A stretch of DNA of 64,000 bases from Trypanosoma brucei (GCA_000002445.1 CM000208.1:1600001-1664000); one strand, 5' to 3'; numbered from the stretch's first letter, positions 8,677 through 39,440 are shown. Notes: generated from the letters alone by a model not told the origin. Translations and numbers: made by a program.

Positions 8677-9040
8677 CTAGGCTGTTTTCAACTTTTCTCT
8701 CTTATTGCTCATCGTTTCATTTGATATAACATTATCATCATTGTTCCCATTGTTAATGAAGGGGGGAAAGGAAGGGAAGAGGGAAGAGATGGGATGTCAA
8801 GTACCAAAAAAAAAACGAATACAAGCGGGGTGGATGAGGTAGTGGAGGTGAAAGAGGTCTGAAACGAGACCTTCTTCACCGTCCATCTGCCCCCTAATTC
8901 CGATACTCTGATATCGGTTTGGTTAGCGCAAATATATACGTTAAGGGAAGTGCACACTTATACAAAAGGAGGAGCATCCCCGGGAACTAAAAAAAAACAT
9001 TCTGGAAGCCCACCGAATACTTTAAGTACGGAGGAGGCAT

Positions 9041-9322
9041 CTAGTTGCTCTGCTTCAACTCACGAAGTCGGCGGACCGTCGACCGCACGGTTGTGTTGTT
9101 CGGCGTACTCAGCGTGTAGGCGCCACCAGCAACCGTCTTGCTGCAACCATCGCAGCGCCAGATGCCAACGGCCTTGCGACGGAATGCGAACTTCCCGCAG
9201 AAGGAACAGAAGTGTTTCGCATGCTGAGACACCTCCAGCTTCTTGGCGCGCTTACGCGGGTTCGAACCATAGCGGGCGCCATAGCGCCCCATGACGCCCA
9301 TCTTGACGGTACGCTTCGCCAT
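9041..9322 (-). CDS. RPL37A: 60S ribosomal protein L37a (eL43)
   Basis: 93 aa. '[19 protein letters not shown]...[17 protein letters not shown]...[24 protein letters not shown]...RRLRELKQ' is collinear with human RPL37A, including the C4 zinc ribbon CSFC...CDGC. Confidence 0.93.
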
Positions 9323-16855: not shown

Positions 16856-19849
16856 CTACCGATGCGAGAACTGTGTCCCGCTGAGCGTGATGAACCCCCG
16901 AACCGTACCCAGGTCCCTTTGTCGTTCGTACCACTTGGCGAGCTCCAGAGACTTAACCCGTGCTGTGTTTACAACCCCGGGGGAAATACCGGCAAGCAGC
17001 GCCACCTCAACGCCATAGCTTCTCGCGCAGATTCCGGGCACAAGGCGATAAAGAAAAGTAATGGTCGGTATATTGCTGTCACTTGCAGCAGAAACGGCAA
17101 AGTCCATGTAACCGAGCTGAACCCCCCCAGTTTCAGATGCTGCTGAGGAAGTGGATTTCTGCATGGACTTGTGCTCCTCCTGCGCGAGCGCGTGGTAGTG
17201 GGTAGAGAAGAGTAGAAGGGGCGGCACTGGGTGCCTTTTCTTCATGGCGGCGAGCATTGCGTGCGCTATTGTGTAGCCGTCGTGCGTAGATGTCCCCCTG
17301 CCGAGTTCATCCACTAAACAAAGACTCCACGGACCGGCAAACCGCACAATCTCGGCTGTCTCACTTAACTCGACATAAAGGGTACTCTGTCCTTTGTGCG
17401 TTGCATCGCGAGCGCCAATCCTTGTGAAAACACGGGTAACGGGCGCCAAGCGCATAGACGTAGCAAACACTGGTCCACCCATTTGGGCTATTATAACATT
17501 CACGGCAACTGTGCGCATCAGCGTACTCTTTCCAGCCATATTCGGTCCGGTCAGCACCAAAATGCGTCCATGTGTAGCGTCAAGATTGACAGTGTTTGGG
17601 ACAGAATCGCTTTTGAGAAATGGATGTCGTAGTTCTTCCGCAAGCAGGTACGCACCGGCGTCACATTCTTGTACAACGGGGTAGCAAGTAGCGACACCAC
17701 TGGTATGTAGCGACGCCAGACTGAGCAAACAATCAAAATAGCAAAGAGCCGCTGTGGCTTCATAAAGGACGGGGAAGTAATTAAATATATGCGAGGCAAT
17801 GTTTCGAACAACAAGTAAGAGGGCATCTGCTTTCTTCGTTTTGGCACGCTTATGCTCCTCTACCAGAGGTTCCAAACCTGCGACTGTATATCTGACACAC
17901 GCTGAAGTACGGGATCGCTCGATGAACCCAGGGGGACATCTCTTAGGTGCCTCCATCAATGGAACCTCAACCAGAAAATTTTCACGACCGATATGAGAGT
18001 AGGTGATTGCAGCACCGTTGAAAATGTTGTCGCGCAGCTCCCCTAAAACTTCATCCAATTTTTTCTCTATGATATCTAAGCACTCCGTAGCTTCGTCGTA
18101 CGCGGGACATGCTCCCTGCGATGGTACAATCACCCCTGACACCTCAGCAGCTTTTCGATCGAAACAGGCCTTGATTGAGGCGACAGCAGGAGCCACTGCG
18201 CCCATGGTTCCCCACAGTTCCTGCAAAAGAGGGGGGGCACACTCCTTTTGGACGTTGTTAGACCAATCCAGCATCTCCTCGAATGCAACAACGGTTGAAA
18301 TAATAAGTTGAAGATGCTTCTTGTACTGCACGAGAGGATCTACGAAGGCTATTTGTTGCGAGTCACCCTTCAAATCGGCCAACCGTGAAAGATTGCGCTC
18401 GAAATCTGTGGCGAAAAGGTTTGTAAATCGAGATTCAAATGTGTTTGTTGTCCTCCCCCGCTTCGATCCACACTGCGTACCACTCGCCTGAGTGAATTCT
18501 TGGGTAGGGCCCTCGGAAGTACGAGTGCTCGAATTAGGGGTGCATATTGGTGTCGTAACATCGGCAGACTCCTCCGTTTTGGCCCAGAGATCATTCAAAT
18601 TATTTTCGATGATAAAGCGTACCGCTTCCTGCCTCGCATTGATAACACGCGGGGACGCGGAAGGTCGCAAAATCCAAGAACGGAAAAGACGCTTTCCACC
18701 GTTGGTGCAACAACGGTTGATCAGATTAAAAAGAGATCCGCGTTCACTATCGTCCCGCAGGTTACCCACGAGTTCAAGATTACTTACTGTCGCGGCATCA
18801 AGAACCAACCCGGGGTCTTCGCGACGTTCGTACCACAGAAGAGTTGAATCGGAGCAACGACTTCGATCATTCGACGGCACACCGCTGGTTACCTGCTGCT
18901 TTAAAAGGTGAAAGTTGTATGGTCGAGCCTCCAAAAGTATAGAGTCAACATTACTCAACTTTAACGATCTAAAATACTGAGCTAAGAAACGACCCGCCTC
19001 CTTTAAGCTCCTCTCCTCAAGGGGGAGTTTGCGAAGTGAGGTACCAACCTCTTCAACCAGTTCAACCTGGAAACCCTCCCCTTCTACCCATTCAAATAGA
19101 CGTCTCCCAAATGATCCCTTGGGCTCCTCACCAGGCGCATCAACAGCCCCACGCGGAATTATTATTTCACGGGGACGGATTTGTTGAAGGAGCGCAGAAA
19201 CTTCATTAAGCACCTCTTCAACAAAGCCTGCGGCGCTCTCCTTGCCATTCGTACCGCAGGGACAGTGGAAAACAACGCGACGGGAAAGATCGACGGCCAT
19301 TCCATCCACACTACCGCTCCCCATTGGATACAGTGCAAGTACGAACACTGCACCATAGCCGCTGATCATCATGGGATCGGTTATGGTGCCAGGGGTAAGT
19401 ATCTCAACTAGCTCTCGTGGCACGACTTTCGGACGAGCATTTTTTGATGACTCCCCTTCCTCCTTCATTTGCTCTACTCGACCCACCTTGTAGCCCCGAA
19501 AAACGAAGAGACGGGCCCATTCACTAAATGTTTGTTCAGGGACGCCTGCAAGCCGCATTTTCCCTCGGTTAGTGGTGTCAACAACTAGCTTCAACCCGAA
19601 CTCACGGTGAGCCATAGCGGCATCTTGGTCGTAAAGCTCATAAAATTTGCCCTTTTTGAAAAAAATTACCACATCGTAGTGCTTTGACTTCACTTCCCAG
19701 TACTGTCGTTCCATGGCAGCCATTGCCTCCAAGTCCCTAGGAGGGATAGTAATAGAAGAGGGCGGTCGCTTCGGATCAATACCCCTTAAAAACGGGTAAG
19801 AAACGTTTTCAGGGCAAATGTCCTCACATTCAAGCGAAACCTCAGGCAT
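16856..19849 (-). CDS. MutS homologue of the MSH6 type (DNA mismatch repair ATPase)
   Basis: 997 aa. The N-terminal mismatch-binding motif 'VVIFFKKGKFYELYDQDA' matches MSH6 'VICYKVGKFYELYHMDA' and retains the Phe-X-Glu mismatch-recognition residues. Walker A 'LTGPNMAGKSTLMRT', 'DELGRGTSTHDG' and 'FSTHYH' of the MutS ABC ATPase are present. Paralogue assignment (MSH6 versus MSH3) is tentative. Confidence 0.85.
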   Translation of the reverse strand: MPEVSLECEDICPENVSYPFLRGIDPKRPPSSITIPPRDLEAMAAMERQYWEVKSKHYDVVIFFKKGKFYELYDQDAAMAHREFGLKLVVDTTNRGKMRLAGVPEQTFSEWARLFVFRGYKVGRVEQMKEEGESSKNARPKVVPRELVEILTPGTITDPMMISGYGAVFVLALYPMGSGSVDGMAVDLSRRVVFHCPCGTNGKESAAGFVEEVLNEVSALLQQIRPREIIIPRGAVDAPGEEPKGSFGRRLFEWVEGEGFQVELVEEVGTSLRKLPLEERSLKEAGRFLAQYFRSLKLSNVDSILLEARPYNFHLLKQQVTSGVPSNDRSRCSDSTLLWYERREDPGLVLDAATVSNLELVGNLRDDSERGSLFNLINRCCTNGGKRLFRSWILRPSASPRVINARQEAVRFIIENNLNDLWAKTEESADVTTPICTPNSSTRTSEGPTQEFTQASGTQCGSKRGRTTNTFESRFTNLFATDFERNLSRLADLKGDSQQIAFVDPLVQYKKHLQLIISTVVAFEEMLDWSNNVQKECAPPLLQELWGTMGAVAPAVASIKACFDRKAAEVSGVIVPSQGACPAYDEATECLDIIEKKLDEVLGELRDNIFNGAAITYSHIGRENFLVEVPLMEAPKRCPPGFIERSRTSACVRYTVAGLEPLVEEHKRAKTKKADALLLVVRNIASHIFNYFPVLYEATAALCYFDCLLSLASLHTSGVATCYPVVQECDAGAYLLAEELRHPFLKSDSVPNTVNLDATHGRILVLTGPNMAGKSTLMRTVAVNVIIAQMGGPVFATSMRLAPVTRVFTRIGARDATHKGQSTLYVELSETAEIVRFAGPWSLCLVDELGRGTSTHDGYTIAHAMLAAMKKRHPVPPLLLFSTHYHALAQEEHKSMQKSTSSAASETGGVQLGYMDFAVSAASDSNIPTITFLYRLVPGICARSYGVEVALLAGISPGVVNTARVKSLELAKWYERQRDLGTVRGFITLSGTQFSHR

Positions 19850-22800
19850 TGGAAAGCGGAACTAGAGATCTCCTCAACTAATTAATTCAGGATACCAAGG
19901 GTCAGATCTCCCTCCAGCACTTAGGCAAGTAAACAAGGAGCGAAAGGCAATACTATCGTAAGTAACACAGGGCACCATGAGGTAAACAAACACGAAAAAA
20001 AGTAGTTGAAAAAATAAACACATATATGCCTTCTGAAACGGTATCCGAATCCTAGCATCCCGTGGTAATAGTTATTATAAGTGTTAGACGTAAAGTGTCA
20101 ACCACGAGGGTAAACGAAGGAAAAGAAACAATAAATAATCACGCTGATGTTTGAATATCATGTCATTCCTCACCACCGTTCCGAAGGTGACAAAAACATG
20201 TATCTGCTACCTCTAACTTGAGACAAAATTGAATATAATCGTAAAGGGTGTACCCGATACATACACGAATAACACTCAGTGTAAAAATTAAAAAATGAAT
20301 AAAACGAGAAGACCTTCGGTAATACCTAAGAAGACAGAACCTGTTTCAAACTCGCTGATTACATCCAACGTCCCTCTTATCCATCAATCCGGCTTGTAGT
20401 GATGACACATTCTAGTAATCAACTGTGAAAATGGGGTGAGATCATGAAAGCAGATGTTCATCCGCTGTTCATTCCGCGAGGATGTTAAACCTACACGGAA
20501 CCTTCCTTAGCTCTCCACACTGGGCACTATGAGGAAAACATGCCGTGCTACCTGTCACTGGAAACCTGTTGCTTCACCAGCAACGATAGACTAAAACGTG
20601 GCCCCAAACCCCCAAAAAGTTAGCGCCAGGACTGAAAGTTCGTACCATTTGCCCCGCAGAGCACATGTGTGCACGAGCGTATTGCCGGTGAGGAAAGAAA
20701 AATCCATAAACGTTTTCAGCAAAACATTGGAGGCCTCGGTTTTCCATGAAATACCATACATACAAGAAACAAGCGAAACGAAAAATAAAACAAAGCACCA
20801 TAGTTGTAGTCATGGATAATGCCCGTAGTTCCTTTTTTTTTTTGAGGAATAAATGAAAACATGTTCAGATTTTTTTGAAGAAAAGGGGGAGTTGCCGACC
20901 CTTAGAAAGCACCAATCAGCTTTTTCTCCTCAAAGGTTCGACATACCGCAAAGAATTGTTCATACGGTGCCCAACATCGGTTCGTATGCACCGCTATGAT
21001 CATTTTCGAATGCAACAACCACTAACGAGTCAACCCATTGCAACAGGGGAAAAGTATAAAAAAAACAAACTACACTATTGCTTCATTCAGAAATAAAAGT
21101 GATTGATGCGGGCACTAAATGTTAGAGGAAAGACTCGCTGAATTTTGTGAGCAGCGAGTCCTCTATTATATTACTACTCATCGATTTTATTATATTTTCC
21201 TTATATAATACAATTTATAAGGGGAGATGTGCCGCCGAATCATTGCATAAGTAAGGGAAGAAATCGAGAGAAAACGCAGTAGCTTCTGCATGTTATGCAG
21301 GACCCTAGACCATGGCTAAGCTAAACTCAAAGAATTAAAAAACAGTTAGAAAACACCGAAAGGCTTGATAACAAGTGAAAACCGCCACGATGCACCGTTT
21401 AGTGATATATCTAAAGTAACAGAGTTGAACAATAACTAGTGACAACGGAAACTGCATGGCCACCTTGAGACAAATATACCATAGCCCAATTTCACGGAAG
21501 AAAAAAGTCGATAGGAGCTAGTGGGCACGAGAGCTGTTGCCCTACGTGCTGGAGAGCAAAGCAATACTGAGCAATCACGTGTCCACAAGAAAATATTATA
21601 ATCAAGGGATAAAGCTCAGCAACCGTTCACCCTTTTGGTGCTTTTTGGGACACACAAAACCGAGGACAAAAGACGCAAAACGGTGAAGAGGTAAATATGT
21701 GCATGGCACATCATAAGCCATCAAAGATAGGCATCCAATACCCAGAGATGCCCCGCGGTTAAATCGGTTCCCAGCTTGTTTTTGTTTTACCGCGACCAGT
21801 TAGTACACCAAAACTTTTTTTCGTTAATTAAAAGAGTACCCCTCCAAACAAAACACTGAACCCATTAACACCAAATCAAAAAAGCCTTAGTGTTTCAAAA
21901 TAAAAAACGCAATATAGCATAAGGGTCAAGGTACAATAAATGGATTGTAAGTGTAAAGATTAAAAGGCAAGGGGGGAAACACGATCGTGGCGTGTAGCAC
22001 TTCCTTAGAAACACATATTGCACCGGTTGCCTCACAGAATGGAAGGAAAAAGATACCAGCACAATCGCACCGATACATACGTACGATGAACCAATTCGTA
22101 GAGCTTAAGTAATTAAAAAATATGAGCAGCTGGTGGCCAGGTTCGGGGAACTCAGCACAACGCATTACCAGGTTCAGCACATCGGGTAGACGGGGGAAGG
22201 GTTGTTTGTCTTCTTCATCAGCGCTGGAGCGGCCTGTCGCCCATACGTGTAACAAACCACAGTCAACAGACTAATGGGATATTGTGTCCACAAACTCTGC
22301 AAAATCGGCTGATATTTACACAGATTGGAAAGCGAAAATTAAAAAAAACCATGTAACCAAAGGAACCTCAACCATCTCTTTCCCCTTCAAAACATTAAAA
22401 TAATTTTCAGCGAGTATAACTAATCCCTTATTCATGAAGAATCGAGCGAAAGGGAAGAATAAATGTTGGAAACAGTGGTTGTGGTAAGCATATCTTCAAC
22501 TTTTCTATCACATAGAAAGGCATTTTAAAACCTTCCAACACGAAATTTTGACAAACATCCTCGCACGTACGGCCAACCCTCCGCAACAACACATGAACGA
22601 TGTTTACACACCTTACATGTATGGTTCCGGGAGTTCACCCTTCCCAGAGCCGCTGTTCGGTGAAAATCAAAAGAGGGCTATTATGTTATCCGTGACGATA
22701 TAAACAAACGCACAAAAGCGCAGTGAATCTCACCTATTTAAGAATAAGTTAAAGCTATGACAAAAATACAATAAGAAAGGGAAAGAGTTGGCTAGTGGAT

Positions 22801-25800
22801 TTTCTCCACGACTTTCCCCAATTCACTAAAAGCAAGAAAAAAGTGCATTACGGCCGGTCAGGGAAAGCATTCGGCTCAAACGTACCACAGGGTAGGGGGA
22901 AATAGAGCTAAAATTCCCTCCGTGCCGTAGGCTTGCGGCAAAATCGAGGGAAAGTGCGGATCGAAAAGAATATCGGCTACAAGCTAGCAAAAAAAAACGT
23001 ACCGACGTGCAGGGAGGAGACTGGGGATGCGGCATGTCTACTCGATCTTCACATACTTACAGGCATATGCACACCGTGGGATTCAACCTGAATAGAAAAA
23101 CAGCAAAGGAATGTCAGCCATTTAGACAGTGGGGAATTTTGGGTCCGCTGTCAAGGTCAGTATTAAGCTGCATACTGGTAGACTGGGATCGACTGATTAC
23201 TGCACGATTTACAAGCAGCGGTACACACACATCTAACCGCCAAAACATATTTGCGCATGGGCGGGAATACCGGTTGTACAATTCCCCCTCCAGATTAAGG
23301 ACCACTTTGCCAAGTAAGAACCGACGACCCAGCATAATGTTCCTACAATGAATTTTCAACAATGGTCGGACCAAATAAGTAAGAGTACGCTACACCACCT
23401 TTCAAAACGGTCCACTTTCCAACACACAGAGGAAGAAAAGAGGCATGTGTCTCGAGACGCCCACAGTAAGAGAGAAAGTGTGATACATATAATCCAGAAA
23501 AGTTAATACCACCAAAGATGACTACTAAGGGCAGATAGGTATCCAGATGTGTATCTCGATACCGTTAAGAGTGGCCAATCAACGAAGCAGCATAATCATG
23601 CGGCACATCGGAAGAGAAAAACAGCTAATATATAGGATTCACGGTACTTATCTATGAGAAACAAGCGAGTCAAAATCAATCTAAAGATAATTCGCGCGGC
23701 ACAACATAAACAATCGGTAACGGAAGGGAAATCGCGGTTGCACACACATTCAGAGATTCGTCCGCCCGATTCTCCTCGAGTCGAACAGGAAAAACTCGAG
23801 TCGTTAATCCGAACACTATTGATATACAAAGTGCGTATTTCAACAGTTTCACCGAAAGACAATCATTTTCATAACCCCCATGGGCGTCAACGGCTGGCAC
23901 ACCGATAACGAACCCTTGGCAAACTCGCGAAAAAGAGGTCGGCCGAATTATCCACCAGGCCGTATATCAAAAGGCATTCACAGCCGTGACGCCGACACGA
24001 AACAGGGCAACTGAAACTGGCATAAACTCACACATATATAGTCACTTTAATTACGCCAGTTAGTAAAAATGAATAAACAATGCAACAGTTAACAGTGAGC
24101 ACAAAAGAGTGTATACATAATAATGGCGTGTTGTGCAAGGGCAATGCAACTTAACTAGCGCTACTACACGTGCAGCCATCATAACTCCCTTTTTCGAGAC
24201 GTTTCAGAGCATTTCAACGAAAAACGGCACACGTACATGCACATGAAGATGCGTCTGTTTTAAACAGTAGTAACCTACAGCGTTAAATTCCCCTAGGGAA
24301 GCAAGACGTCATGGCACCACAAGCTGCGGCCGAACGGATGCGCAACACGACATTTATGAGAACTTAAAGTCAGGCGGAAGTAATCCCTGTAAACAAAAGA
24401 GAACACTCGTTGACAAACGCAACAGAAAGGGGAAATTACAAGAAAAAACCACTAACCCAGTTACTGAAAGCGCCCCTTATATGTTTTTTTCCTTTTTTTA
24501 ATGCAACTGCAGGTAGCTTCTCGCAACAGCAAAACGAATACCACATCTCCGCCCATATGCGCAGGTATACATCGACTCCGGTTCAAAACTCTTTGTCGTG
24601 CATGATGGCTCAATACCTTCAGCGGTTGCGTCAAATTGCTTCCACACCAACCAACGACATGTTGATAAACCCGGGTGTGACGCCAACAAACAATCAAGCC
24701 CCGGGTGGTAATGTACCCAGTGCCACCGCGTCTGCAAATAATGACGCCGCTTAAAAAACATGTTAATCCACAAACTTGCCACTGTAAAGGCAAAAGGCTC
24801 ACAATCGCCGCCAGCCTAGAGTCACAACACGACCCGCCAACTCCCCAAACCGTCCAAAAAAAAAAAGATTCGACACAGCAGGGGCCAGTACTACGTAATC
24901 GCGTCCTGCATGACCCTTTCGAGCAACCCCTCGCCCCCGGCTCCGAGATTTTCTGGACAGACGCCCTCAGGCCAGAAACAAGAGGTGCGCACCCCATACC
25001 AATACACCGACGCCCCGTGCCACACCGTGTCACATCATACACTTGCGAAATGCATACTCAACATCATCGCGGGGGGATCTCCAGCGAAAGCTGCCGCTAC
25101 GGGTGTTCCCTCGGTGAAGGGTCCCTCTGGCGTCCCCATCGCTCCAAGTGGTAAAAGCGGCCGAAAATAAATTGACTACAAAGGGGGCCCCGACGTGTAA
25201 CTCGCGCGCCGCCCGAACAAACGCATTTTCGGGCAGCAGTTTATGGGGAAACCTTGTGTAAATAGTACCCCCTTGCTTAGAATCATAACCGCCGACATGC
25301 GGAAACAACTGTGGCCCACGGCGGCTGAACCACTGTGGCGCCTTGCAATGTAGCGGCCTCGACGAACACTAACACGGAGAAGTAGGGAAAAGAATTATGC
25401 AAAAAGCCCCACCCCCACGCTCACTATACACAGAGAAAAGCGGAAGCCCAAAACGCATGCGCCCGCACGCACAGCTCTGAGAACTGCGAATGAAGCCGCG
25501 CGAACGGCCAAACCTTATTTGACTTTCCCTGCTTCCGGACATTATCCTCTCCGATGCTGGGAGCGGGCCCCTTTCCTGGTCCGGTGCTTGTGCGCTCTTC
25601 CTGTCGCAGGCACTACTTGGACCATTCACCGGGACGGCGGGTAGCGGGCAAGCGTTGGGTAAGAAAACTCCTTGACGCAGTGCGAATGGTCCGCCAGACA
25701 CTCTTTCCGGAGGAGACCATGAGCAGGCAACGCTAGCCACCAAGAGGACACTGCTGTGCTCGGGACCCTGTATTGCACAGCTTTTGGGTCAACGGCGTAG

Positions 25801-26766
25801 CGCTGGGACGCCGTTTTCCACTCGTCAGTCCCTGAGGGAAAAATACAACTGCATCGGGCCGTCGGCCAGGACAGATTCGGGTCAGGCACTTACAGTCCAT
25901 CACCCTAAGCTAAATGAGAAGCTCGTACACATGCCTGCGCTGTGTTGCGGAAAATGTTTTTTGTAAATCCGTTGATTGATCGTTTTCACGCAGACAGCAG
26001 TCGAGAAACGTTAGGAGCACATCGCAACAGATGTCGAGCGGGACCCTTTTGGCTCCGGCAGTAAGATCGCGTATTTTATCCCCCTGTGCACGACCATTCC
26101 TTATCTTTTTGACTGTGCTGCTGAGGTACGGCCGACTCAGGTGCAAACGACTATTTATTTATTTTTTTTCGCCGGCGCCGGATGGAGGGGTCACAATGCC
26201 GTCCACAAAACGAGAACACCCAACGGCGGGCACCGCCAGACTGACCAGACTGTTACTGCGCGCGCCAGATAACTTTTGAAATCTCTCCGATATCCACCAT
26301 GCCGAATTCAGTTGTACCGGGTTAAAGGACCCCTACCGCCTTTTTTTGCGGACAAAACTAGAGGGAGCAGCGGCAGTTGCTGCAACTCCGTTGCGTAGAC
26401 TGGAATGCACCTCTCACGTGAAGGAGGTTTCAGCCAAGGTGTGTGTTTTGGCGAGCACAGGGGGAAATTGCGGCAGTCTCTTCCTTAACAGAACCCTCCG
26501 TGGCGCCCCGCTCTCCAGTCCGTAGTGGTGGGGAAGACTTCTTGATCCCGGACGCAGGGGCATGTGAAAGAATTTCTCTTTACGTACATTGTTGTCATTA
26601 CATTTCCTTCACATGGAGAGACCATTTCCGGCACACACGTGTATCGAGTGACACCCTTCAAAGCAGCGTCGACTTACATGTTCTCAGATCACAAAACGCA
26701 GCTGCGACGTCTCGAGAGTGAAAGCGTCCAACAATAAATTAGAGGGCTTGAATGTAAGTACGGGTC

Positions 26767-26768
<2 letters not shown>

Positions 26769-26804
<36 letters not shown>
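26769..26804. repeat. (GT)18 microsatellite at the strand-skew switch point
   Basis: Direct read: 36 nt of uninterrupted 'gt'. Confidence 0.95.
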
Positions 26805-26806
<2 letters not shown>

Positions 26807-27106
26807 AAACCGCCCTAGAGCCCCCAGTTCTAGGGATAGTTTGTTATGGAATCGTAGCCGTCATCACGGTTGATAGCATGTTATTCTCGGTGCATAGGTG
26901 ACCGCACTTAGTATCGATGTGACTCAGTGAGCCGAGCGTGACTGCGTTGTGTTTTATCGTAAAACTAGTCCTCCTTTGGGCGTAGAAAAGTAAATTTGGC
27001 GTCAGCGTTGCAGTGGGCTTGGTACAGTATTACAATGCGCGTCTGAAAGCAGGGTGGTTTACACGAAAGTTGGGACTCACTCCCTACATTTTCTTTGGTT
27101 TCTGTC

Positions 27107-27126
27107 TTTTTTTTTGGGGGGGGGGG
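27107..27126 (+). repeat. T9G11 composite homopolymer tract
   Basis: Direct read: 'tttttttttggggggggggg'. Confidence 0.9.
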
Positions 27127-27504
27127 TGAACTGATCAACGTCTCGGGGATATTACACGATTCATAATGGGAACGTTTTCTTAGTCCCTGGTTGAAATTCA
27201 CAAATCCGACAACACAGCAAACTACTTACCACCGCCCCTCCTACAAAAAAAAGACGTTTCAACCAGTGCTGAGGAGAAAAAAGATTTCTGTTTGGCTATG
27301 GCGGGCCGTCACCTTGTTTGTACCATTGACCCACTGGCTGTCTACTTCAAAAACATACACTGCGAAATGTCACCTCAGGAAGGTAGCACCAGTTGTCTCT
27401 TGGCCAATCCATTTCTTGCCCACCCGCCTTCGGAGGAGCGTTGCAATGGAAACCGGAGATATACTGATTAGTCTTTAGGGTTTGACTGAGTTCCAAAGCC
27501 ATAG

Positions 27505-27523
27505 TTTAGAGTTAGGGTTAGGT
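27505..27523 (+). repeat. Short interstitial telomere-like hexamer cluster (TTAGAG-TTAGGG-TTAGGT), with another TTAGGG at 27475-27480
   Basis: Direct read of 'tttagagttagggttaggt'. The trypanosomatid telomere unit is TTAGGG. Confidence 0.5.
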
Positions 27524-30500
27524 GCGAGTTGGTGTACCAGTCCAAATTGCGAACATCATCTTATCTAGTGCAGCGCTTCATTACAGCTGCACCGCGTTTC
27601 CAGTAAACGTGCGTCGCTGCAACACATTGGGTGGCCAATGCCTCTCTACGGTATGGGCACGATGGCTCCCTCCTCTTGCATGTGATAGCGTGTGGGTCAT
27701 CGTTCCTTTGGTCCTATTCCTCAAATGCGGAGCAACCCCTTGGTCACTTTCTTTGAACTGAACTTCAGACTCATCGACTTGTCGAGTCATCCAATCATAA
27801 AAACGCCAGAGCCTCTCCGTGGAACTCCGCGAGCGGTCAGACTCCTCCTGAGTCAGCGTTGGACCCTTCTTGTTGGCCGTCCGGTAGTTTGCGAACAGCC
27901 CCTCTCCACTTGCAATCGGAATCTTTTTTTGGCGTCGCTTGACTGGAGCAAAGGTTCTGTAGGTAGTGCTGCGTTCAGCTTCGTCTCTTGCCCCCATCCC
28001 TCAAGGTTGATTTTTTGTTTTACTCCAGTGAGAAACCAGAACCTGTAGTGGAATGCGAGCGTCACAGTGTGAGACTAAAAAATACCCTTACGTTATACGG
28101 AGCTCTCTCGAACACTACGCCAAGATCTGTTCGAGGCACCATGGGTAGTGTTCGAGAGTCTGGTATTATACACTTTACACAAACAGGGCATATAATTATG
28201 CGGAGATTTCCCTAGTGTTCGATACTATTCAAGATGTGAGAATGCATTTCCTATGGTGACTAAAAGTGTGTTATATCGGCTTAGTTCCCCTGCACATAAT
28301 ATACCATGAGGCGTTATGTACACAATATGGGAAGTGTGGCTACTGTATATGTTATTTGTTAACTCTTCCTTCGAATGAAACTACAGTCACAGCTCTCCTT
28401 CTCACATCATATGTATCTGCTTTACCTCACATTATTACTCTATACCATCGTGTTCTAATGGGAAAAATGATGTGGAATGACGGATTGGGTGAAAAAAGAA
28501 AAGATCAGAAAGGCATGACTATCTCTCTCTATGGTGTGTGGTATACGCTGTTGATGCTTTGAAAGTTCTGCGTCATCACGTGATATCGTATATCCACATG
28601 CTGTGTGCATGTATTCGTGTGATGCATGCTTGGAACAATGGAGAGTGTGACCATGTCAGTTTGTGTTCACCACCGTGCTCTTCATCTGTAGGAGTAGGTA
28701 AAACTAACAACAGATCATCAATATTTCAACGAAGGGAAGACAGGGTCGGTTTTAATCTGCGGCCACCGAGTGTCGGAGCAACGGTGGAGCCCCAACGTAT
28801 CCGTAGTGTTCAACCCCCTCCGTTGCGGTCTCCGCGTCCCCGCTCCTCATTGTTCGGCCGCTTTTGAAGACGCCACGTTGAGACTGGAACCTGTGTCTTG
28901 CCGCTTTTGCTGGAAAGAGGAAGGAAGATCACTGTGGCCACTAACAGTGGAGGGTCGGGTGTCGTGAGATGTGTCTATCTTCCGTTGGGGTTTTCTTCTT
29001 GGGAAAGCGGTTTACCTTAGTGGGCGGCGGTAACCTGTTCTATTTGGAAGGATGTCGTGCAGGGGGTGAGTGAGTTTTCTTGACCAAGTTTACGAATTTG
29101 TTGTGCACCCCTGTTTTATCCCACTGCTTGAAGTGTTTCGGAATAGATGATAGGGAGGATGGTATGGCAAGAAACCTGCCGGGACCTTTACCGTTTCACC
29201 GCTGACTACATGTTCCCACAATTTTCTACCATATCCTTCGGGCGGCATTGCAGTGAGAGTGCCATGTGGGACAGGGGACAGATTGGAACTTGATCTTCCG
29301 GAGGTCTTCGGAGTTATAGAGTGATTGCTTCTCTTCTCCTTTCCTTTGGCGTGACTCTCATACGGAGGCTCTTGGTGAGCAGGATACAATTCGCCTGCTG
29401 ACTTTTTGGTTTATTTTTTTCCATATTTCAGTGTTGCGGGGTCACTTTCGGCACCGTTGGGAATCGAGAAGTGACGTATAAAGGTGTTCGCTTCTGCAGC
29501 AAAAAGTGGTTCCGTTTGGTATTCGTTTGTGGAGACATTTTCCCTCCTTCCCATTTCGGACAACTTTTTGTCCCGGAAGAAGGGCTTTTGGTATTGTCCC
29601 GTCCGATGATCTTTGCCCCGATCGTTCCATCATGAATAATAGCTACAACTGTGTGTGTCTGTACGGCTGTGGATATTTCCGCAGTCCCCAATCGCTTCGG
29701 TCGCTTTTACTCTTTTATAGCACGGTTTAGAGTTGGTAAGCCGGCACCGTTCCATGGAAATAGCACTCATAGACATGATATCGGCGCCCCCTCAGAGCTT
29801 ACGCGGGCATCGAAGAGTATGACTTGATTGTCGCTGTGCGATGCGGATTGGAGGGTCATGTTTCTAACGAGGCAGCACCTCGAGAGGGTCACGCTGCTGC
29901 CTGAACTAATGGCACGCGCATGGCCACATTTTACACGCTCCCATATGCCTTCAATGTTTCACATATTTTCCGCATACCGAAGGACGACGAAATCACTCCC
30001 TCTGCGTGAAGGGACATCTTTATCCCGCTCCAAAGGGTTGGAAGTTGGAGCCGTTAGTGCTTACCTCTGTTCCTGCAGAGTTGGATCGCGGAACTGTTCA
30101 GTTATCGCTATTTTTCCGTGGGGGAATTTAACGGGGGTAAGGGTGATTTTGAGGGATCCTGCAAGGTGGGTTCTTGCGTGGACAAATTCGCGCGAATCAA
30201 CACTCGAGACACCCATCTCCGGTGACAGGTTTTAGAAGAAGTTTAAGGGTACAATAACAGAGCGTTCATGCATAGCTATGCCTATTTGCTTCATATCCCT
30301 GAGGAAGTGATGCGGCAACACATCCTCGTGGGGGAAGGGACCCAAGGAGTACGAAGGGTTTCGAGTGCCTTTTATTGTTATCGAGGCATATGTCCCACTC
30401 CACTACCAAAACATCCCCGCACAACGACGGGGGCCCTTCGGGTAGTAAGCCGATCTTGCTAACCTTCTCTTTTTTCAATACATACGCGCCCACTTCTCTT

Positions 30501-31596
30501 CTCTTCGTGATGGTGTACGTGGGGGCCACCGGAATGGCGCCTGTTATGGCCCTGGAGGTTGCAAAATAAGGAGGGAACACTTTGTATAAAGGGATGGGCA
30601 ACCGGACTCGTTGTAGCAGAAAGTCGGAGGGGTCACACTCAGTTTTCGGCCCGCTGCAGGAACAACGCTTGAGGGGCGAGTCGCTAGGAAGCGTAGCGGT
30701 GAGAGCTTTCCCGTTTCTGGAGGGGTTTTGGAGAGCTGACACCGAGAATGCCGGTAGGTTCGCCTCGGCCGGGACATGACAACTGACACTATTGAATTGA
30801 GTACTTGGAGGGGTGACGGTGTGAAGGTGAGGTATCAACCGATGGAGGTCGCGCGTCCCAGCGTCCCAGGTGGCCGTCAACCTGGAACTGACAGGCCCTG
30901 TGCCTGGGCTTTTGCCGAGCTGCTCGTCTGACAGAAAGGGAAGCTGCGTCAATACTGAGGCCCTTGTCGCTGTGTTTGATGTTTTGTCGCAGATGCTGCT
31001 TTTTGTTTTATTTTTCCCCCATGGGGACTCCAAATTGAGTTAGAGCGGCGCCTGCTACAAAGAGATTTGGTCGTTTTTCGTGATAAAGTTAGGGCTCTGC
31101 TCGGTGCATTTTTTTAAAAAAAATTCTAGGAGGCAAGGGTCCTGGGCGCGGGGGCGGGGACACCACTACGTGGGCTGCAGCATGTGGACTCTGCCGGCCC
31201 CTTTTCTTTTCACCGAAACGCTAGCTGACCTATGCTCGCCGCGCACGTCCAAGGTGCCATGGAAGTACCCCCTCAGTTGTTTGCCCGGAAAGTGATGAGG
31301 GAGCAGCCGGCCATTACTAATCCGTGGGCTGCCGGTGGGACATCAGGAAGGTGATATTGCTGCCGGTTTTGTAAAGAGCAAGGTGAGACCGGCGCATCCC
31401 GACATCTCTTTGAGAGTGCCACAGCCCATCGCTAGAGAAGGCAGCGGTTTGCAGTACGCTGTTGGGGTGCGCGCCTGTCTGAGGACTTCCCTAATGTAAA
31501 CATGTTGTGGCTGCCTCTTTGGGCATGAGCGTCTTAGGTGCGATTGTTTTTTCCTACGTTTCGCGGTCGTCACAGTGGTAGGTGGTAGACTGCATG

Positions 31597-31624
31597 TTTT
31601 TTTTTTTTTTTGGGGGGGGGGGGG
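31597..31624 (+). repeat. T15G13 composite homopolymer tract
   Basis: Direct read: 'tttttttttttttttggggggggggggg'. Confidence 0.9.
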
Positions 31625-32098
31625 TGATTATCTATGCCTCTCCTCGTTTTAGGTGCGAGCATCAGCAGCGCCGGCGGACGTGTTCTTGACTCCTAGTGGG
31701 CGCGTAAAAGACGGTTTGTTTCGAGTTGTTCGGTCCACGCGGCCTGGAGCTACGTTGGCGGAAGTGGGTGGGTTCCTCCTTGTCGTATGCTCGGACAGTC
31801 CTAGCGATAAGACCGCGGGAAGGGACTTCTGTCGCGTGTGGGTGATCTGGGTTTATCGCTGTTGCTCAATGGAGCTTTTTTTAAAGGCCTCCCAAGAGGG
31901 TCCTTTTACTCTGTACTGTTCAACGTTGGCGCCCACTCGCTTAGTATTCACAGTCTTCGTGAGAAGAGGTTGGTTGCGGATACTGTAGAATGGCATCCGG
32001 CTGAAGTGCTGTGGTCTTTCTGTTGCGATGTTAAAGATACTGGCCCTCGAATCAATGTTTACCGGTGGAAGCTGTACACCTGTGTTGTGTCTGACAAT

Positions 32099-32134
32099 CT
32101 CTCTCTCTCTCTCTCTCTTTTTTTTGGGGGGGGG
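32099..32134 (+). repeat. (CT)10-T8-G9 composite tract
   Basis: Direct read: 'ctctctctctctctctctct' + 'tttttttt' + 'ggggggggg'. Confidence 0.9.
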
Positions 32135-32553
32135 AACGTGGATGTAAGTTCGCAGTCGCTTTGTTTAAGAGTTTAGTAATATCTTCGCGTGTGTCCACGA
32201 GGTGGGCGACAACTAGATTGTTCTGAGCCGCTACTGCGTATGTGCTCCGTCACCGATTCCTGTTGTTGGATGTTCAGATAATGGTGCGGGGAAACTTTCC
32301 ATGAATCACCTGGGATGCCTTGTGTAGAAGTGTCCTTTGTCTTTGTGGTTTGGTGGCACTGCCTCTCATTTCTTCAACCATCTTTTCATTTTTTAAATGG
32401 ACTATTTTCTCTTCATTTTAATGGATATCATCACTCTTGGTATGTATGTGGAGCCATTTGCATCGTCATCGTTACTTTCCCCATGCATGAAGTAGGTATT
32501 TACATCAGTTCTTGTTCCTTTGCCGCTTCATTTTGATAACAAAGCCACACGCT

Positions 32554-33291
32554 ATGAAAAGAGTTCTTTTACTCTTTGACGTTGACGGAACGCTAACCCC
32601 TCCTCGACTTTGCCAAACGGACGAAATGAGGGCTTTGATAAAGCGAGCGCGGGGTGCAGGGTTTTGTGTGGGTACAGTTGGAGGATCTGACTTTGCAAAG
32701 CAGGTTGAGCAACTCGGACGTGACGTCCTCACTCAGTTCGATTACGTATTTGCAGAAAATGGTCTACTGGCGTACCGGAATGGATTAGAGATTCATCGGC
32801 AAAGTTTGTTGAATGCACTTGGAAACGACCGCATTGTAAAATTTGTTAAGAAAACGCTGCGGCTTATTGCTGACCTTGATATTCCGGTCCAGAGGGGCAC
32901 ATTTGTCGAATATAGGAATGGTATGATAAACGTTTCGCCGATAGGACGCAACTGCTCCCAGGCTGAGAGAGATGAATTTGAAGTTTATGATAACGAACAC
33001 AGAGTCCGTGCAAGCTTAATTGCGGAGCTGGAGAATAGCTTCCCCGATTTTGGGCTGAAATACTCTATTGGTGGACAGATAAGCTTTGATGTCTTTCCAG
33101 TAGGCTGGGACAAAACCTATTGTTTGCAGTTTGTTGAAGACGACTTCGAGGAGATCCACTTTTTTGGCGATAAGACCCAAGAAGGTGGAAATGACTACGA
33201 AATTTACACGGACAAGCGGACTATTGGGCACAAAGTTACTTCCTACAAAGATACCATTGCAGAGGTGGAAAAAATAATTGCCATGAAGTAA
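32554..33291 (+). CDS. PMM: Phosphomannomutase (eukaryotic PMM, HAD superfamily)
   Basis: '[14 protein letters not shown]...[16 protein letters not shown]...[12 protein letters not shown]...[29 protein letters not shown]...[22 protein letters not shown]...[17 protein letters not shown]' is collinear with human PMM2. The ORF-track start at 32512 is TTG. The first ATG is 32554 ('[15 protein letters not shown]'), which matches the PMM2 N-terminus. Confidence 0.92.
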
Positions 33292-35980: not shown

Positions 35981-38900
35981 TGAGACTCAAGTTTCCTGTT
36001 TGTAGAACTTACATTGTCGACCCCCTTTCCGTTCTATGCCTACGAGTGCCAGCAGCGAGAGGGTATATATACGCACATATAAGCTTCTTTCTTTTATCTC
36101 GCATTTTTGATTTTAACACCGCTCCGTTGTATTTAGGTGTGGGTTAGTATTTAGTTTAAAATTCTTTCAAGTCCTCTCAACTCAGCCAGGGTCGTAAAGA
36201 GCAAGACACAGAGGGGAAAGCTGCCCTATAATCGCCTGTGGCGCATTTTCATGAGTCCTCATTAGGTGTTCCTGCGCCAGCGGCCAAAACATTGCATCAT
36301 TCCGTCGCCGTATGGAACCAACAATTGTGAAAAAAAAAAAGGATTTAATCGGGGGATCCCCTTGGAGCAGATCACTGTTATGAGGTTTATTATGAGTGTT
36401 GCGAACAGGGAAACAGCTGGTGATGTTTATAGACGTTCTGCTTTGGTATTGAGTATATGATTGCTGTACCAACTGCCATGAGGCAGTCATTAATACTTTT
36501 TTTGACTTTTAATTCGTTCTTTGATCAAAAGTGTACGTGTATGGAATCATCTTGAATATTTGGAGAATTAATCATACGTCCGGAAGATTTGAATATAGTA
36601 ACTTCTTCTACCAGAGACCGAAATACCGGGATGTGTGATTTTATGCGGTTGCCGCTGGGAGCACGCTTCTATGCGTGCCTTTTACGAGGGCGCCTACGTT
36701 GTTGCAAGTGTGATCTGTGCGGCATTTACTCGTACAGCGGAGAGCGGGGATATCGCTTCTGGGGTATGCGGGAACGGGACATTGAATGCCTTCTTTTCAT
36801 CGTTAACACTCAACTTATTGAACATCTGTAGATGTCAAAGGGTGCCGATGCCGACTGATCATCGAGATAGCGACGGAGTTACCGTTGTTCCCTGGAGTGA
36901 TGTCCGATTTTACCAAATATGAGAGGAGGAGGTCTGTGTTTTCTCTTTTGACCGGACCGGTTATGAAATGAGTGATTTACCACTGCATTCAGCATGTGCA
37001 ATGACAGCAGTAAGGTTTGTAACTCCGCTTAAATCACCACGAGTATGTGAGTGCTCGTGTGATATGTTGTACTGCGCAAGAAAGAAACACGTGGACCCAA
37101 TTCCTGCCGTATCGACCCTCGGCAAAAACGTTTCGAGCACCTCTTCGTTAAATATACGCTTGTGGATGGGCTTGAACGAGAGCGTTCGGCATCAAGATAT
37201 ATGTTTCCTGTGTAGGTAAAGACAATAGATTCGAAGTTGACGTTTCCAGAAGTGTGCAACACGCTGTGGGAAGATTCCACTGGAAGCTGCATAATTTTGT
37301 TATGTACAGATGCCGTAGGTTCATTCGGTTGCTTCTAGAACCTCGTTGGAGGATTAGATAGGCATACAGGGAGTACGCCGTTGCTTGCTCGAGGTTATAG
37401 TGCACCTCCTGTTGACACGAACGGACATACGCACGTGTGTGAACACGAAGTGCCCTTCAAACCTTAAGGATTCGATGTTTCAGTCTACTTTATCATGCTG
37501 AGGGGTTAAACTGACCTATGCGTTTTTGCACTTGGGTGTGGTTTTAGAATTCTTTGAGAGGCGGGATATTAGCATGCAGTGCCTCTGTGCTCTATATCTT
37601 CCATGCACATCCGGTCTGGTGAATGACCCTATCTCTTTACTACGCGGTGTCATGCGGCTTATACTGACAGTTGTTAACTCTGGTGCATCCTGCTGGCGTG
37701 TTAATGGCCCTCGTTGAGCGGTGAGATGTGGAGCTCCCCTCCTTTTCAAGTGGTTCTGTAAATGGTGGCTAATCGTAACTCATTCTACAGATTTGCAGCT
37801 ATGTTTTTTCCGCAGGCGCGCTGTGCAGAGATGTGTGATGCTTACAGGTGGATACCACATACTGCTCCGTTGCTGTGCGGGTTATGCTTGGGATGCAGAC
37901 ATGGAAGGGTTGGGGAATACTGACTTCCACGATGTGGGTGGCGTTAACGCTGACGAAGAAAAATATTGTTTTTGTAGATTGATTGTCAAACGAGCTGCGC
38001 GGGTGGCGTGGTGGGGGAAGGGCGTTGTTTTATTCTCTGTGTCGCTCAAGCGCTAGATCATGCACTTGAAGGAGTGTCCACCAGCGTCATCGGTGGGGTG
38101 GCTGCGCCCTTCGTTGACCATCTACATGTTTGGGTCGAAATCACTGGCGTTGTCGTCTGCTGTATTCGTGTTGGATTGCTTTACGATGGGGCGGAAGCAA
38201 CGACTCCTCTCAGCAGTGGTAAATGTTCCTCTGACGTTGCGTCTGATGCTGTATTTCTCAGCTTCATACAAGGGGGAGGAACCGAGATTACCACCATCTA
38301 CATGTGTTCTTGGGTCTTCACAGGGCAACAATTTTCTTCTTTTACCCGGCGCCTTTGCGGAGAGTGGCTGCACCACGTTCTTCCCAGGTCGAGAGGGCTT
38401 AATGAGTGAATTACAGGATGAATTGTGGCTACAGTTGCCGTCGAGGCTACTGATTTTAGCTAGATTAGATTTAGCGAACTTTTTATTTGCAGTTGTAGGT
38501 CGTTTGCCGAATAGTGGGATCAACCTCTTTCAGCAAAGGCCCCCTTCATCACTGGCAGTTTTACCCAAACGTTGCATGGGCATGACTCTTGTTGCCCTTA
38601 CAACGTTGTAACTCCTCGCGGAAATGTCTCGATTGTGTCTCTTTCGTATGGACACTTCATTTGGAGGAGGTTTTATCCCTTTTTTCTGATAAATTGATTT
38701 GTTGCAGCAACCTCGTCGTCCCCCAACATGAGTTGCACGGATCAATATTAAAGTGGAAAGAAGGGGTGCTACGACGCAGTGCTTTTGGTCGATGTCGGTA
38801 AGGTATCGCTTTGCTTCGCACTACAGGTTTTTTGTTTGGGGGTATTGCGCGGACGGTGTGTTTGTGTGTGTGTGAAAAGACTATGGGGGTAGCGAAGAAG

Positions 38901-39440
38901 GCCCGGTAAAGGGTCAGATCGTGATGGAGCCGTGACAAACAGTAGGAGTGGTGGTAACATCGAGAGGTGTCGCAACTCGGGCTTCGGTGCGCACAATATA
39001 TGGGAAACGTTGCCCTCAAGGACCCCGCTGCCAGCTACTCGGTATTGGGGCGAAGGGACAAACTTGAAGTCATGGAGTTTGCTGAATTCCCTTCCAGTGA
39101 GAGCCTGCGGGTTGATCAGTTTAGACCAGTTTTAGGATACCCAAAATCTGGAACTTCAATATCCCACTGTTTTGTCTCCGCACAGCCTTAAGGTTGTGAA
39201 ACGTCACGAACAGGGAGTGCCGTAGGACCACGTGGGTACCCGCTTTAATAACCGCAGGGGCTAGCCGTGTTTTACTATTCCCCTCCCCGATAAAAGAGGC
39301 AGTAGCACTGTTCCTTCTTGTTTTCATATTTGTTTTCGTTTTGTAAAAAAAAATTCCTTGGATGCTCTTCTTTTTCCTCCTAACCTTTTATCAATTATTC
39401 CAATGGAAAAAAAAAGCAGCAACAGGACTCACCGGCCACT

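Follow-up and report, generated by a model that had tools for sequence, protein, structure and literature searches.

In the divergent strand-switch regions of Trypanosoma brucei, two gene clusters lie head to head with no coding gene between them, the G+T bias of the sense strand flips inside the region, and processed non-coding RNAs are found at the cluster starts, with a non-transcribed spacer (Siegel 2009; Kolev 2010; Wedel 2017; Staneva 2022). Start regions are 5-10 kb wide, and where they diverge, one promoter peak or two can be seen (Staneva 2022); the two start regions of a divergent pair are described as separated by DNA that is not transcribed (Wedel 2017). It should be noted that broad, bidirectional initiation was reported as well, which runs against a model with two separate start zones (Kolev 2010). 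In Kieft 2020, one chromosome 10 example lies around Tb927.10.8340, and a second one, with Tb927.10.6430, is presumably the locus studied here; the situation described is that of a silent annotated ORF between two start sites, derepressed when the termination complex is lost.

We analyzed a window of 64,000 nucleotides from chromosome 10 of T. brucei TREU927 (Tb927_10_v4 1,600,001-1,664,000; positions below are counted from its first nucleotide). It contains a gene-free interval of 12,704 bp, which is a divergent strand-switch region between the genes MSH8 and PMM. This locus is an ordinary feature of chromosome 10 that was documented before, in Kolev 2010 and presumably in Kieft 2020.

Locus and flanking genes

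The interval covers positions 19850-32553 (Tb927_10_v4 1,619,850-1,632,553) and no other gap between long ORFs of the window is as wide, the second largest being 3,460 bp and the median 758 bp. Over the whole window, the long ORFs up to 19849 are without exception on the minus strand, and from 32554 onward they are without exception on the plus strand. The two genes that border the interval are as follows.

16856-19849 (-): MSH8/MSH6-like mismatch-repair gene, Tb10.70.0420 (assumed to be Tb927.10.6410); the protein-coding genes of the minus-strand unit begin here
32554-33291 (+): PMM, phosphomannomutase, Tb927.10.6440 / Tb10.70.0370; the protein-coding genes of the plus-strand unit begin here

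The MSH8 ORF encodes 997 aa with 100% identity to a T. equiperdum protein and contains MutS_I/III/V domains. The identity of the locus was established by two window ORFs that equal TREU927 proteins (Tb927_10_v4 coordinates are window coordinates + 1,600,000), by the AG found directly before four of the four published minus-strand 5' ends, and by a published TbPMM cloning primer that matches exactly at 32554. The assignment of Tb927.10.6410, 6420 and 6430 to window genes relies on accession numbers that run consecutively, together with gene order and strand. Both flanking units, Tb10.70.0420 to Tb10.70.1270 (-) and Tb10.70.0370 to Tb10.6k15.3550 (+), are classed as 'Divergent' in Table S14 of Kolev 2010.

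Coding and structured RNA signals

No protein-coding gene lies between the two clusters. Pfam families, including reverse-transcriptase and endonuclease domains, were not detected in the interval in six frames with stops masked. Using a codon model trained on the genes of the window itself, the ORFs of the interval scored 0.121, compared with 0.085 for off-frame and antisense controls and 0.276 for real genes, and a stop-blind scan of the interval found no residual coding signal or codon bias. No nucleotide conservation with T. vivax was found across the interval. A stop-free run of 257 codons at 30269-31039 (-) exceeds 300 of 300 block shuffles. ARAGORN predicted no tRNA genes, and Rfam gave no match at the gathering score in the whole window and none at E<=1 in the interval; a tRNA, snoRNA or snRNA cluster at the unit boundary was rejected on these grounds.

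Two ORFs inside the interval are annotated as hypothetical proteins in TREU927, T. b. gambiense and T. equiperdum, and are lineage-specific.

24461-24997 (-): 178-aa ORF Tb10.70.0410 (presumably Tb927.10.6420), 'T. brucei spp.-specific protein', regarded as non-coding
29858-30235 (+): 125-aa ORF Tb10.70.0380 (presumably Tb927.10.6430), silent in wild type

They match EAN78056/XP_822884 and EAN78057/XP_822885 exactly, and the former has no Pfam match. Their codon scores (0.038 and 0.090, respectively), like a third score of 0.109, are at background level. Neither has a detectable transcript (Kolev 2010 Table S2), and both annotated ORFs are spurious.

These results bear out the original prediction in its main structural points: an interval of 12.7 kb without credible coding sequence, on which the Pfam, codon-model and stop-blind scans agree, lying between a minus-strand cluster that ends with MSH at 19849 and a plus-strand cluster that begins with PMM at 32554, in a divergent strand-switch region, a type known for broad start zones that carry histone variants. 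Several details need correction. The interval is not unannotated, given Tb10.70.0410 and Tb10.70.0380. The ORFs over 100 aa, all said to run antisense to the local skew, are about half sense, for example 21926-22255 (-), 24461-25042 (-), 27692-28048 (+) and 29828-30235 (+). The very short or degenerate genes that had been considered possible, and the snoRNA, snRNA or tRNA genes for which covariance-model searches had been suggested, did not appear in these searches.

Strand composition and sequence tracts

As predicted, the plus strand is A-rich (up to ~25.4 kb), then balanced with a GC content of 0.52-0.58 (24.6-26.6 kb), and then G+T-rich. Both halves carry the G+T excess on the sense strand of their own transcription unit, the usual bias for such units. 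The flip was thought to be off-centre; it is in fact at the midpoint of the interval (26,201). Three features are found in this central part.

25600-26400: strand-composition flip, where the plus-strand G+T fraction crosses 0.5 within the GC-rich island at 24.6-26.6 kb
26769-26805 (+): (GT)18 microsatellite, sole tandem repeat of the interval
27107-27126 (+): T9G11 tract, one of three T8G9-containing tracts

It should be noted that the skew flips at ~26 kb and not at the edges of the transcript-free core described below, an observation that speaks against two separate start zones and would fit unstable nascent transcription from the centre. Sense-strand G+T reaches 0.61-0.64 at 24.6-25.2 kb (minus) and at 31.4-32.4 kb (plus). 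Since ordinary intergenic DNA inside the units reaches 0.65-0.66, these values give no specific support for GT-rich promoter elements. The T8G9-containing tracts number three in 64 kb, with none expected, and are found only on the plus strand, as is (GT)18, the length of which differs in T. equiperdum. The other two are a T15G13 tract at 31597-31624 (+), which adjoins the reported 5' end of transcript Tb10.NT.67, and a (CT)10T8G9 tract at 32099-32134 (+), which contains the 5' end of Tb10.NT.68. No tandem array besides (GT)18 was found in the interval, and no repeats were found that it has in common with the rest of the window.

Published transcripts and the silent core

Six novel trans-spliced, polyadenylated transcripts were mapped in the interval, four on the minus strand at 20016-24044 and two short ones on the plus strand at 31595-32419 (Kolev 2010). 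Their coordinates are given here as the Table S7 positions minus 1,600,000.

20016-21199 (-): Tb10.NT.63, processed non-coding transcript, 1183 nt (Table S7)
21328-22426 (-): Tb10.NT.64, processed non-coding transcript, 1098 nt, AG acceptor at the 5' end (Table S7)
22550-23414 (-): Tb10.NT.65, processed non-coding transcript, 864 nt, AG acceptor at the 5' end (Table S7)
23524-24044 (-): Tb10.NT.66, processed non-coding transcript, 520 nt, AG acceptor at the 5' end (Tables S7 and S11)
24045-31594: core without stable wild-type transcript, a spacer with a proposed start zone at each edge (minus left, plus right)
31595-32032 (+): Tb10.NT.67, 437 nt, 0.13 copies per cell (Table S7)
32129-32419 (+): Tb10.NT.68, 290 nt, 3.74 copies per cell (Tables S7 and S11)

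The four minus-strand transcripts are separated by gaps of 109-128 nt: the 3' end of NT.64 lies 128 nt ahead of the splice site of NT.63, and NT.65 is 123 nt from NT.64. An AG and a pyrimidine-rich tract precede the 5' end of NT.63, whose longest ATG ORF (79 aa) is without coding character. NT.66, which lies furthest upstream among the stable RNAs of the minus-strand unit, has no ORF of at least 25 aa (Kolev 2010 Table S11). On the plus side, no AG precedes the reported 5' end of NT.67, and the 3' end of NT.68 is 134 nt from the PMM ATG. None of the six is in the conserved-ORF and peptide tables, and two of the six were classed as non-coding (Kolev 2010). No novel transcript was reported from the core (Kolev 2010 Table S7), and both annotated ORFs lie inside it and are in Table S2.

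The original prediction that the interval could hold unannotated non-coding RNAs is thereby borne out. Its proposal that transcription diverges from 26-27 kb with roughly 6 kb of RNA on each side does not agree with the stable RNA, which spans ~4 kb on the minus side and ~0.8 kb on the plus side. Nor do these RNAs form one giant 5' UTR: they are separate processed units, and 134 nt lie between the end of the last and the PMM ATG.

Additional data come from Kieft 2020, where Tb927.10.6430 is placed upstream of the site at which plus-strand transcription starts in wild type, and is found to rise 4- to 7.5-fold when PNUTS, JBP3 or Wdr82 is knocked down. The presumed same region is displayed there with 5'-triphosphate RNA (PPP-seq) and H2A.Z data.

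Taken together, this map points to two separated RNA polymerase II start zones and not to one divergence point, with a silent core of ~6-7.5 kb. The start sites are bracketed only by the transcript ends and by the statement of Kieft 2020 on Tb927.10.6430. The minus-strand unit would start just above 24.05 kb, the likely site being the GC-rich stretch at 24.6-26 kb, and coupled trans-splicing and polyadenylation split its first 4 kb of RNA into four non-coding RNAs of low abundance, followed by MSH8. The plus-strand unit would start between ~30.2 and 31.6 kb; it yields two short non-coding RNAs, followed by PMM. The middle ~6-7.5 kb gives no stable RNA in wild-type cells, with the PNUTS-JBP3-Wdr82/PP1 complex probably ending upstream or antisense transcription into it early.

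Synteny of the MSH8-PMM region

Between MSH8 and PMM, T. cruzi and T. melophagium have five minus-strand genes: a 204-aa gene, Vps41, TLD, a Sec7/BIG-like gene and LicD. This block is 15.4 kb long in T. cruzi, and the gap from its last gene to PMM is ~0.5 kb in T. cruzi and 0.8 kb in T. melophagium. The matching position in L. tarentolae has 3.8 kb with a TLD pseudogene carrying at least 9 in-frame stops, and in T. vivax at least 10 kb of ORF-poor DNA lies upstream of MSH8. Using the T. cruzi Sec7/BIG-like protein as a query, orthologues with E<=1e-100 were confined to the group of T. cruzi, T. grayi and T. melophagium.

The five genes of the T. cruzi clade and the TLD pseudogene of L. tarentolae at this position indicate that the T. 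brucei gap probably reflects the loss of ancestral genes (at least TLD) from the position. Such loss, in the African trypanosome lineage, is the most likely source of its length. A tblastn search of the interval with the T. cruzi-clade genes (E<=10) gave only scattered chance-level matches, the best (E 0.058) being out of order, and the single in-frame match to the 204-aa protein is to its non-conserved N-terminus. The interval as pseudogenes of the 204-aa gene, Vps41, TLD, Sec7 and LicD was rejected, as no collinear minus-strand protein similarity was found. With no sequence trace of the lost genes, the origin of the present DNA by gene loss is inferred from position only.

Discussion

We put the probability of the preferred explanation as a whole (two start zones, non-coding RNAs, silent middle and origin by gene loss) at about 0.8.

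A tentative variant, doubtful but compatible with it as an account of origin, is that the interval is an eroded remnant of the ancestral minus-strand gene block, with NT.63-66 as fossil processing units of dead genes. The interval does take the place of the five-gene block, TLD is decaying in place in L. tarentolae, the Sec7/BIG-like gene is restricted to one group, and NT.63-66 are tiled like genes with a normal distance from poly(A) site to next splice site. However, neither leftover protein similarity nor leftover codon bias was found, the RNAs match the lost genes neither in size nor in number, and the right half is plus-strand biased, yet the ancestral block was all minus-strand.

It is unlikely that a single broad bidirectional initiation zone at 26-27 kb serves both units, with ~6 kb of largely unstable non-coding leader on each side. 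The position of the flip, the bias of each half toward its own unit and the sense and antisense 5'-triphosphate reads that accompany broad initiation (Kolev 2010) would fit such a zone, and the plus-strand (GT)18 and T9G11 tracts at 26.8-27.1 kb resemble synthetic GT-rich promoter sequences (Wedel 2017). Nevertheless, stable RNA is absent from the lists for plus 27-31.6 kb and minus 24.05-26 kb, and both ORFs of that zone are untranscribed according to Table S2.

Less probable still is that the interval encodes real small or lineage-specific proteins, either in the annotated pair of ORFs or in short reading frames of the novel transcripts. Annotation in three genomes, the 257-codon stop-free run and the 6430 mRNA detected after PNUTS loss (Kieft 2020) speak for it; the background codon scores, the lack of Pfam matches, of wild-type transcripts of the annotated ORFs, of entries in the conserved-ORF and peptide tables and of conservation with T. 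vivax speak against it.

Decayed retroelement clusters and centromere-type domains have been reported from some trypanosome strand-switch regions, in general from long, partly GC-rich, gene-free ones. For the present locus such an origin is effectively refuted, as the interval has no Pfam domain of any kind (retroelement domains included), no arrays besides (GT)18 and no repeats common to the rest of the window, and the locus, at 1.62 Mb, is not among the four early-replicating origins of chromosome 10 (0.80, 1.25, 1.92 and 2.65 Mb).

Compared with its relatives, T. brucei has the same flanking genes in the same orientation as T. cruzi, T. melophagium and L. tarentolae, and the order downstream of PMM (a 2OG-Fe(II) oxygenase-like gene, a metallophosphatase and a 337-aa gene) is common to them. 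The divergent gap, directly upstream of PMM, is only ~0.5-0.8 kb in T. cruzi and T. melophagium, compared with 12.7 kb in T. brucei. Kieft 2020 takes up neither the region's length and composition nor its row of four tiled non-coding RNAs, nor its synteny with other trypanosomatids. The length, which had been considered unusual, fits the known class, since start regions take 5-10 kb each and two separate promoters are possible (Wedel 2017; Staneva 2022). The interval is therefore a standard T. brucei divergent strand-switch region, with no essential difference from those described and a length at the long end of published descriptions.

The interval between MSH8 and PMM is a divergent transcription start region

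The long interval separating the minus-strand MSH8 gene from the plus-strand phosphomannomutase (PMM) gene (19850-32553) is a real feature and a textbook divergent start region. It is already in the literature, where its transcripts, the silence of its ORFs and the effect of losing a termination complex are on record, and the experiments proposed with the original prediction are likewise already published for the region. Its importance beyond correct annotation is small.

The window corresponds to Tb927_10_v4 1,600,001-1,664,000, because Table S2 of Kolev 2010 (PMC2936537) places the two small annotated ORFs of the interval, Tb10.70.0410 and Tb10.70.0380, at Tb927_10_v4 1624461-1624997(-) and 1629858-1630235(+), respectively. 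A published cloning primer for TbPMM (Tb927.10.6440) matches at 32554. Look-ups by exact sequence returned no record for the MSH8 and PMM of the window. From gene order, consecutive accession numbers and strand, MSH8 is taken to be Tb927.10.6410, and the small ORFs Tb927.10.6420 and Tb927.10.6430. The original prediction recognised the interval correctly as a divergent strand-switch region: both flanking units, Tb10.70.0420 to Tb10.70.1270 (-) and Tb10.70.0370 to Tb10.6k15.3550 (+), are classified as Divergent in Table S14 of the same study.

Features of the locus (window coordinates and strand; NT, novel transcripts from Kolev 2010 Table S7)
14146-15834 (-), HSP60 copy, inside an inverted duplication
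16856-19849 (-), MSH6/MSH8-type gene (MSH8), 997 aa, 100% identical to a T. equiperdum protein
20016-21199 (-), NT.63
21328-22426 (-), NT.64
22550-23414 (-), NT.65
23524-24044 (-), NT.66
24461-24997 (-), Tb10.70.0410, exact match to a TREU927 protein
29858-30235 (+), Tb10.70.0380, exact match to a TREU927 protein
31595-32032 (+), NT.67
32129-32419 (+), NT.68
32554, start (+), phosphomannomutase ORF (PMM), 100% identical to Trypanozoon phosphomannomutase
44448-46136 (+), HSP60 copy, inside the inverted duplication

The interval carries no coding signal

At 12,704 bp, the MSH8-PMM gap far exceeds every other gap between long ORFs in the window (next 3,460 bp, median 758 bp), and its description as a long ORF-free gap held up, as neither Pfam nor a codon model nor a stop-blind scan gave a credible coding signal. 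No Pfam family was found in the six stop-masked frames at E≤1. The codon model, trained on 20 long genes of the window and applied to the 91 stop-to-stop ORFs of at least 60 codons in the interval, gave scores of 0.121 ± 0.064 for these ORFs, 0.276 ± 0.069 for real genes and 0.085 ± 0.084 for control off-frame and antisense ORFs inside genes. The annotated ORFs scored 0.038 (24461-24997(-)) and 0.090 (29858-30235(+)). In a sliding scan blind to stops, the frame-specific codon bias of the interval was lower than that of the antisense strand of real genes. The coding-potential scan suggested with the original prediction has in this way been carried out, with a negative outcome, and the presumed Tb927.10.6420 and Tb927.10.6430 are better regarded as non-coding.

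The covariance-model search suggested alongside it recovered no known non-coding RNA family: Rfam gave no match in the interval, either at the gathering score or at E≤1, and ARAGORN found no tRNA. The only tandem repeat in the interval is (GT)18 at 26769-26805, and no repeats are common to the interval and the remainder of the window.

Several other explanations for the gap were considered. An early replication origin is rejected, as the locus is absent from the four early origins of chromosome 10 (Tiengwe 2012). A retroelement or centromere is rejected on the lack of Pfam domains in six frames, of arrays and of repeats recurring elsewhere in the window; the six-frame Pfam result excludes recognisable retroelement remnants. 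Young pseudogenes in general are rejected because the stop-blind codon bias falls below even the antisense background.

Two further observations concern reading frames. A 257-codon stop-free run at 30269-31039(-) exceeds the longest run of every one of 300 block shuffles that preserved composition (mean 161, maximum 251); its codon score is at background (0.109) and it has no Pfam match. A second ORF-poor gap (35981-39440, 3.46 kb) lies between a metallophosphatase gene and a 339-aa gene, at a position where T. cruzi and T. melophagium carry a gene of ~1010 aa. No counterpart of that gene turned up in the window (best E 0.35), nor does the gap show a codon-bias signal.

Stable non-coding transcripts flank a silent core

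The suggestion that the interval could hold unannotated non-coding RNAs proved right: Table S7 of Kolev 2010 (PMC2936537) lists six novel trans-spliced and polyadenylated transcripts here, at 0.13-3.7 copies per cell. NT.66 and NT.68 are tabulated there as having no ORF of at least 25 aa, and none of the six appears in the conserved-ORF and peptide-match tables. Both annotated ORFs of the core, the stretch between the stable minus-strand and plus-strand RNAs (24045-31594), are included in Table S2 of that study, which lists ORFs without a detectable transcript. When the published coordinates were checked on the sequence, an AG and a pyrimidine-rich tract were found to precede the 5' ends of all four minus-strand transcripts. 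The distance from poly(A) site to next splice site among these transcripts is 109-128 nt, the usual spacing for coupled processing.

Stable minus-strand RNA runs from 24044 or above, via four processed non-coding units, into MSH8, and stable plus-strand RNA runs from ~31.6 kb, via two short units, into PMM. The 5' region of PMM is short, since the 3' end of NT.68 lies 134 nt before the ATG.

The 5' ends of NT.67 and NT.68 (31595 and 32129) fall on T15G13 and (CT)10T8G9 tracts with no preceding AG, whereas an AG acceptor is present at the 5' end of all four minus-strand novel transcripts, of NT.62 and of the plus-strand NT.69. These two ends may be homopolymer mapping artefacts or true unspliced ends near the plus-strand start site. 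The published Tb10.NT.62 (12512-13807(-), 1295 nt, 6.4 copies per cell, with an AG acceptor before its 5' end) occupies most of a 1.8-kb gap between two minus-strand genes.

Comparison of TREU927 with T. equiperdum revealed nine single-base differences clustered in a ~430-bp part of the silent core (28333-28765). Over longer stretches, there were 21 differences in 5.8 kb of the core, 4 in 4.2 kb of the transcribed non-coding zone and 3 in 4.0 kb of the MSH8 part.

Synteny and origin of the long region

Five minus-strand genes lie between MSH8 and PMM in T. melophagium and in two assemblies of T. cruzi; they encode a conserved 204-aa protein, Vps41, a protein with a TLD domain, a Sec7/BIG-like protein and LicD. 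Between the last of these genes and PMM is a gap of roughly 0.5 kb (T. cruzi) or 0.8 kb (T. melophagium), and 15.4 kb separates MSH8 from PMM in T. cruzi. The corresponding spacer of L. tarentolae measures 3.8 kb and harbors, on the same strand as MSH8, a TLD pseudogene (~8000-8590(-) of locus L007, from BLBS01000057.1) with at least nine in-frame stops, which is absent from the called genes (35% identity over ~200 aa, E 5e-21). TLD at least therefore occupied the locus in the common ancestor.

No remnant of the five genes was detectable in the T. brucei window (tblastn at E≤10 gave chance-level matches), so syntenic pseudogenes in the interval are rejected as undetectable. The 257-codon run is similarly rejected as a remnant of the 204-aa gene, with chance-level BLASTP and a single in-frame match in a non-conserved segment. 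At the nucleotide level, comparison with T. vivax, T. cruzi, T. melophagium and L. tarentolae yielded nothing beyond low-complexity matches. Orthologues of the 1668-aa T. cruzi Sec7/BIG-like protein (locus L003, 2846-7852) are limited, at the strict threshold of E≤1e-100, to T. cruzi, T. c. marinkellei, T. grayi and T. melophagium; the next match is fungal, with none from African trypanosomes or Leishmania. This distribution suggests lineage-specific loss. A literature search found no gene location for T. brucei Vps41.

In T. vivax, the DNA upstream of MSH8 is poor in ORFs and biased towards the MSH8 strand over at least 10 kb, with a very AT-rich 3.5 kb directly upstream of the gene (6000-9500 of locus L002, GC 0.26-0.33) and a GC-rich island further upstream (1000-3500, 0.60-0.64). 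This layout is similar to that of T. brucei, but the sequence is not shared. The PMM contig of T. vivax ends 1.15 kb upstream of the gene and does not overlap the MSH8 contig, so the region would exceed 11 kb if MSH8 and PMM are syntenic there.

Judged from these sequence comparisons, the long region looks like a trait common to African trypanosomes that followed gene loss. A more specific and rather unlikely version is that the salivarian MSH8-PMM region is the in-place wreck of the ancestral minus-strand block (TLD and its neighbours), NT.63 to NT.66 being surviving splicing and polyadenylation units whose coding sequences are dead. If true, the death of genes can give rise to transcription-unit leaders in trypanosomes, and a promoter can come to lie several kb from the first gene that is still alive. 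The comparative picture, in which five genes occupy the position in the T. cruzi clade and a TLD gene is decaying there in L. tarentolae, is the one modestly new point, and it could make the locus a small case study of strand-switch growth by gene loss.

A separate observation is an inverted duplication of 2,027 bp with 99.9% identity (13825-15851 and 44431-46456) that carries HSP60. Its copies flank the strand-switch region, ~28.6 kb apart. T. cruzi and T. vivax carry HSP60 copies downstream of MSH8; within 10 kb beyond PMM, none was called in T. cruzi. The inverted repeats could mediate gene conversion and flip the entire segment.

Strand composition and comparison with known start regions

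The predicted composition pattern was found along the plus strand: AT skew ranges from +0.15 to +0.32 as far as ~25.4 kb, the stretch at 24.6-26.6 kb is balanced and GC-rich, and a G+T excess lies beyond. Two details were wrong. The flip, described as off-centre, occurs at 25.6-26.4 kb, which is the midpoint of the interval (26.2 kb), and of the ORFs longer than 100 aa, all said to be antisense to the local skew or low-complexity, roughly half are sense. The central flip suggests that, over evolutionary time, each half has served as sense strand for the unit to which it belongs, and it could stem from unstable nascent transcription. Composition alone cannot place the promoters, because the G+T bias of the flanks is not above that of ordinary intergenic regions inside the transcription units; a GT-rich promoter signature defined by composition is indistinguishable here from the usual intergenic bias of the sense strand. 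Start sites judged by strand composition alone are off by several kb.

The original prediction had a single divergence point at ~26-27 kb with about 6 kb of transcribed leader per side. The minus side is partly supported by stable RNA over 20016-24044; the plus side is unsupported, stable RNA beginning at ~31.6 kb. Kieft 2020 (PMC7055916), in its account of Tb927.10.6430, describes the gene as silent and raised 4- to 7.5-fold on depletion of PNUTS, JBP3 or Wdr82; the second chromosome 10 example of that study (S10 Fig) is taken to be this region. The minus-strand start would lie within ~24.05-26 kb and the plus-strand start within 30.24-31.6 kb, bounded by the published statement on this gene (Kieft 2020) and by NT.67. 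A spacer of 6-7.5 kb would separate the starts, with upstream or antisense transcription ended early by the PNUTS-JBP3-Wdr82/PP1 complex.

Divergent regions have been described as two H2A.Z-marked start regions with a non-transcribed stretch between them (Wedel 2017), and start regions as 5-10 kb wide, with one or two promoter peaks in divergent ones (Staneva 2022). Three tracts containing T8G9 (27108, 31604 and 32118, versus none expected) are confined, together with (GT)18, to the plus strand of the right half of the interval, and these elements resemble, as a resemblance only, blocks of Wedel's synthetic GT-rich promoters.
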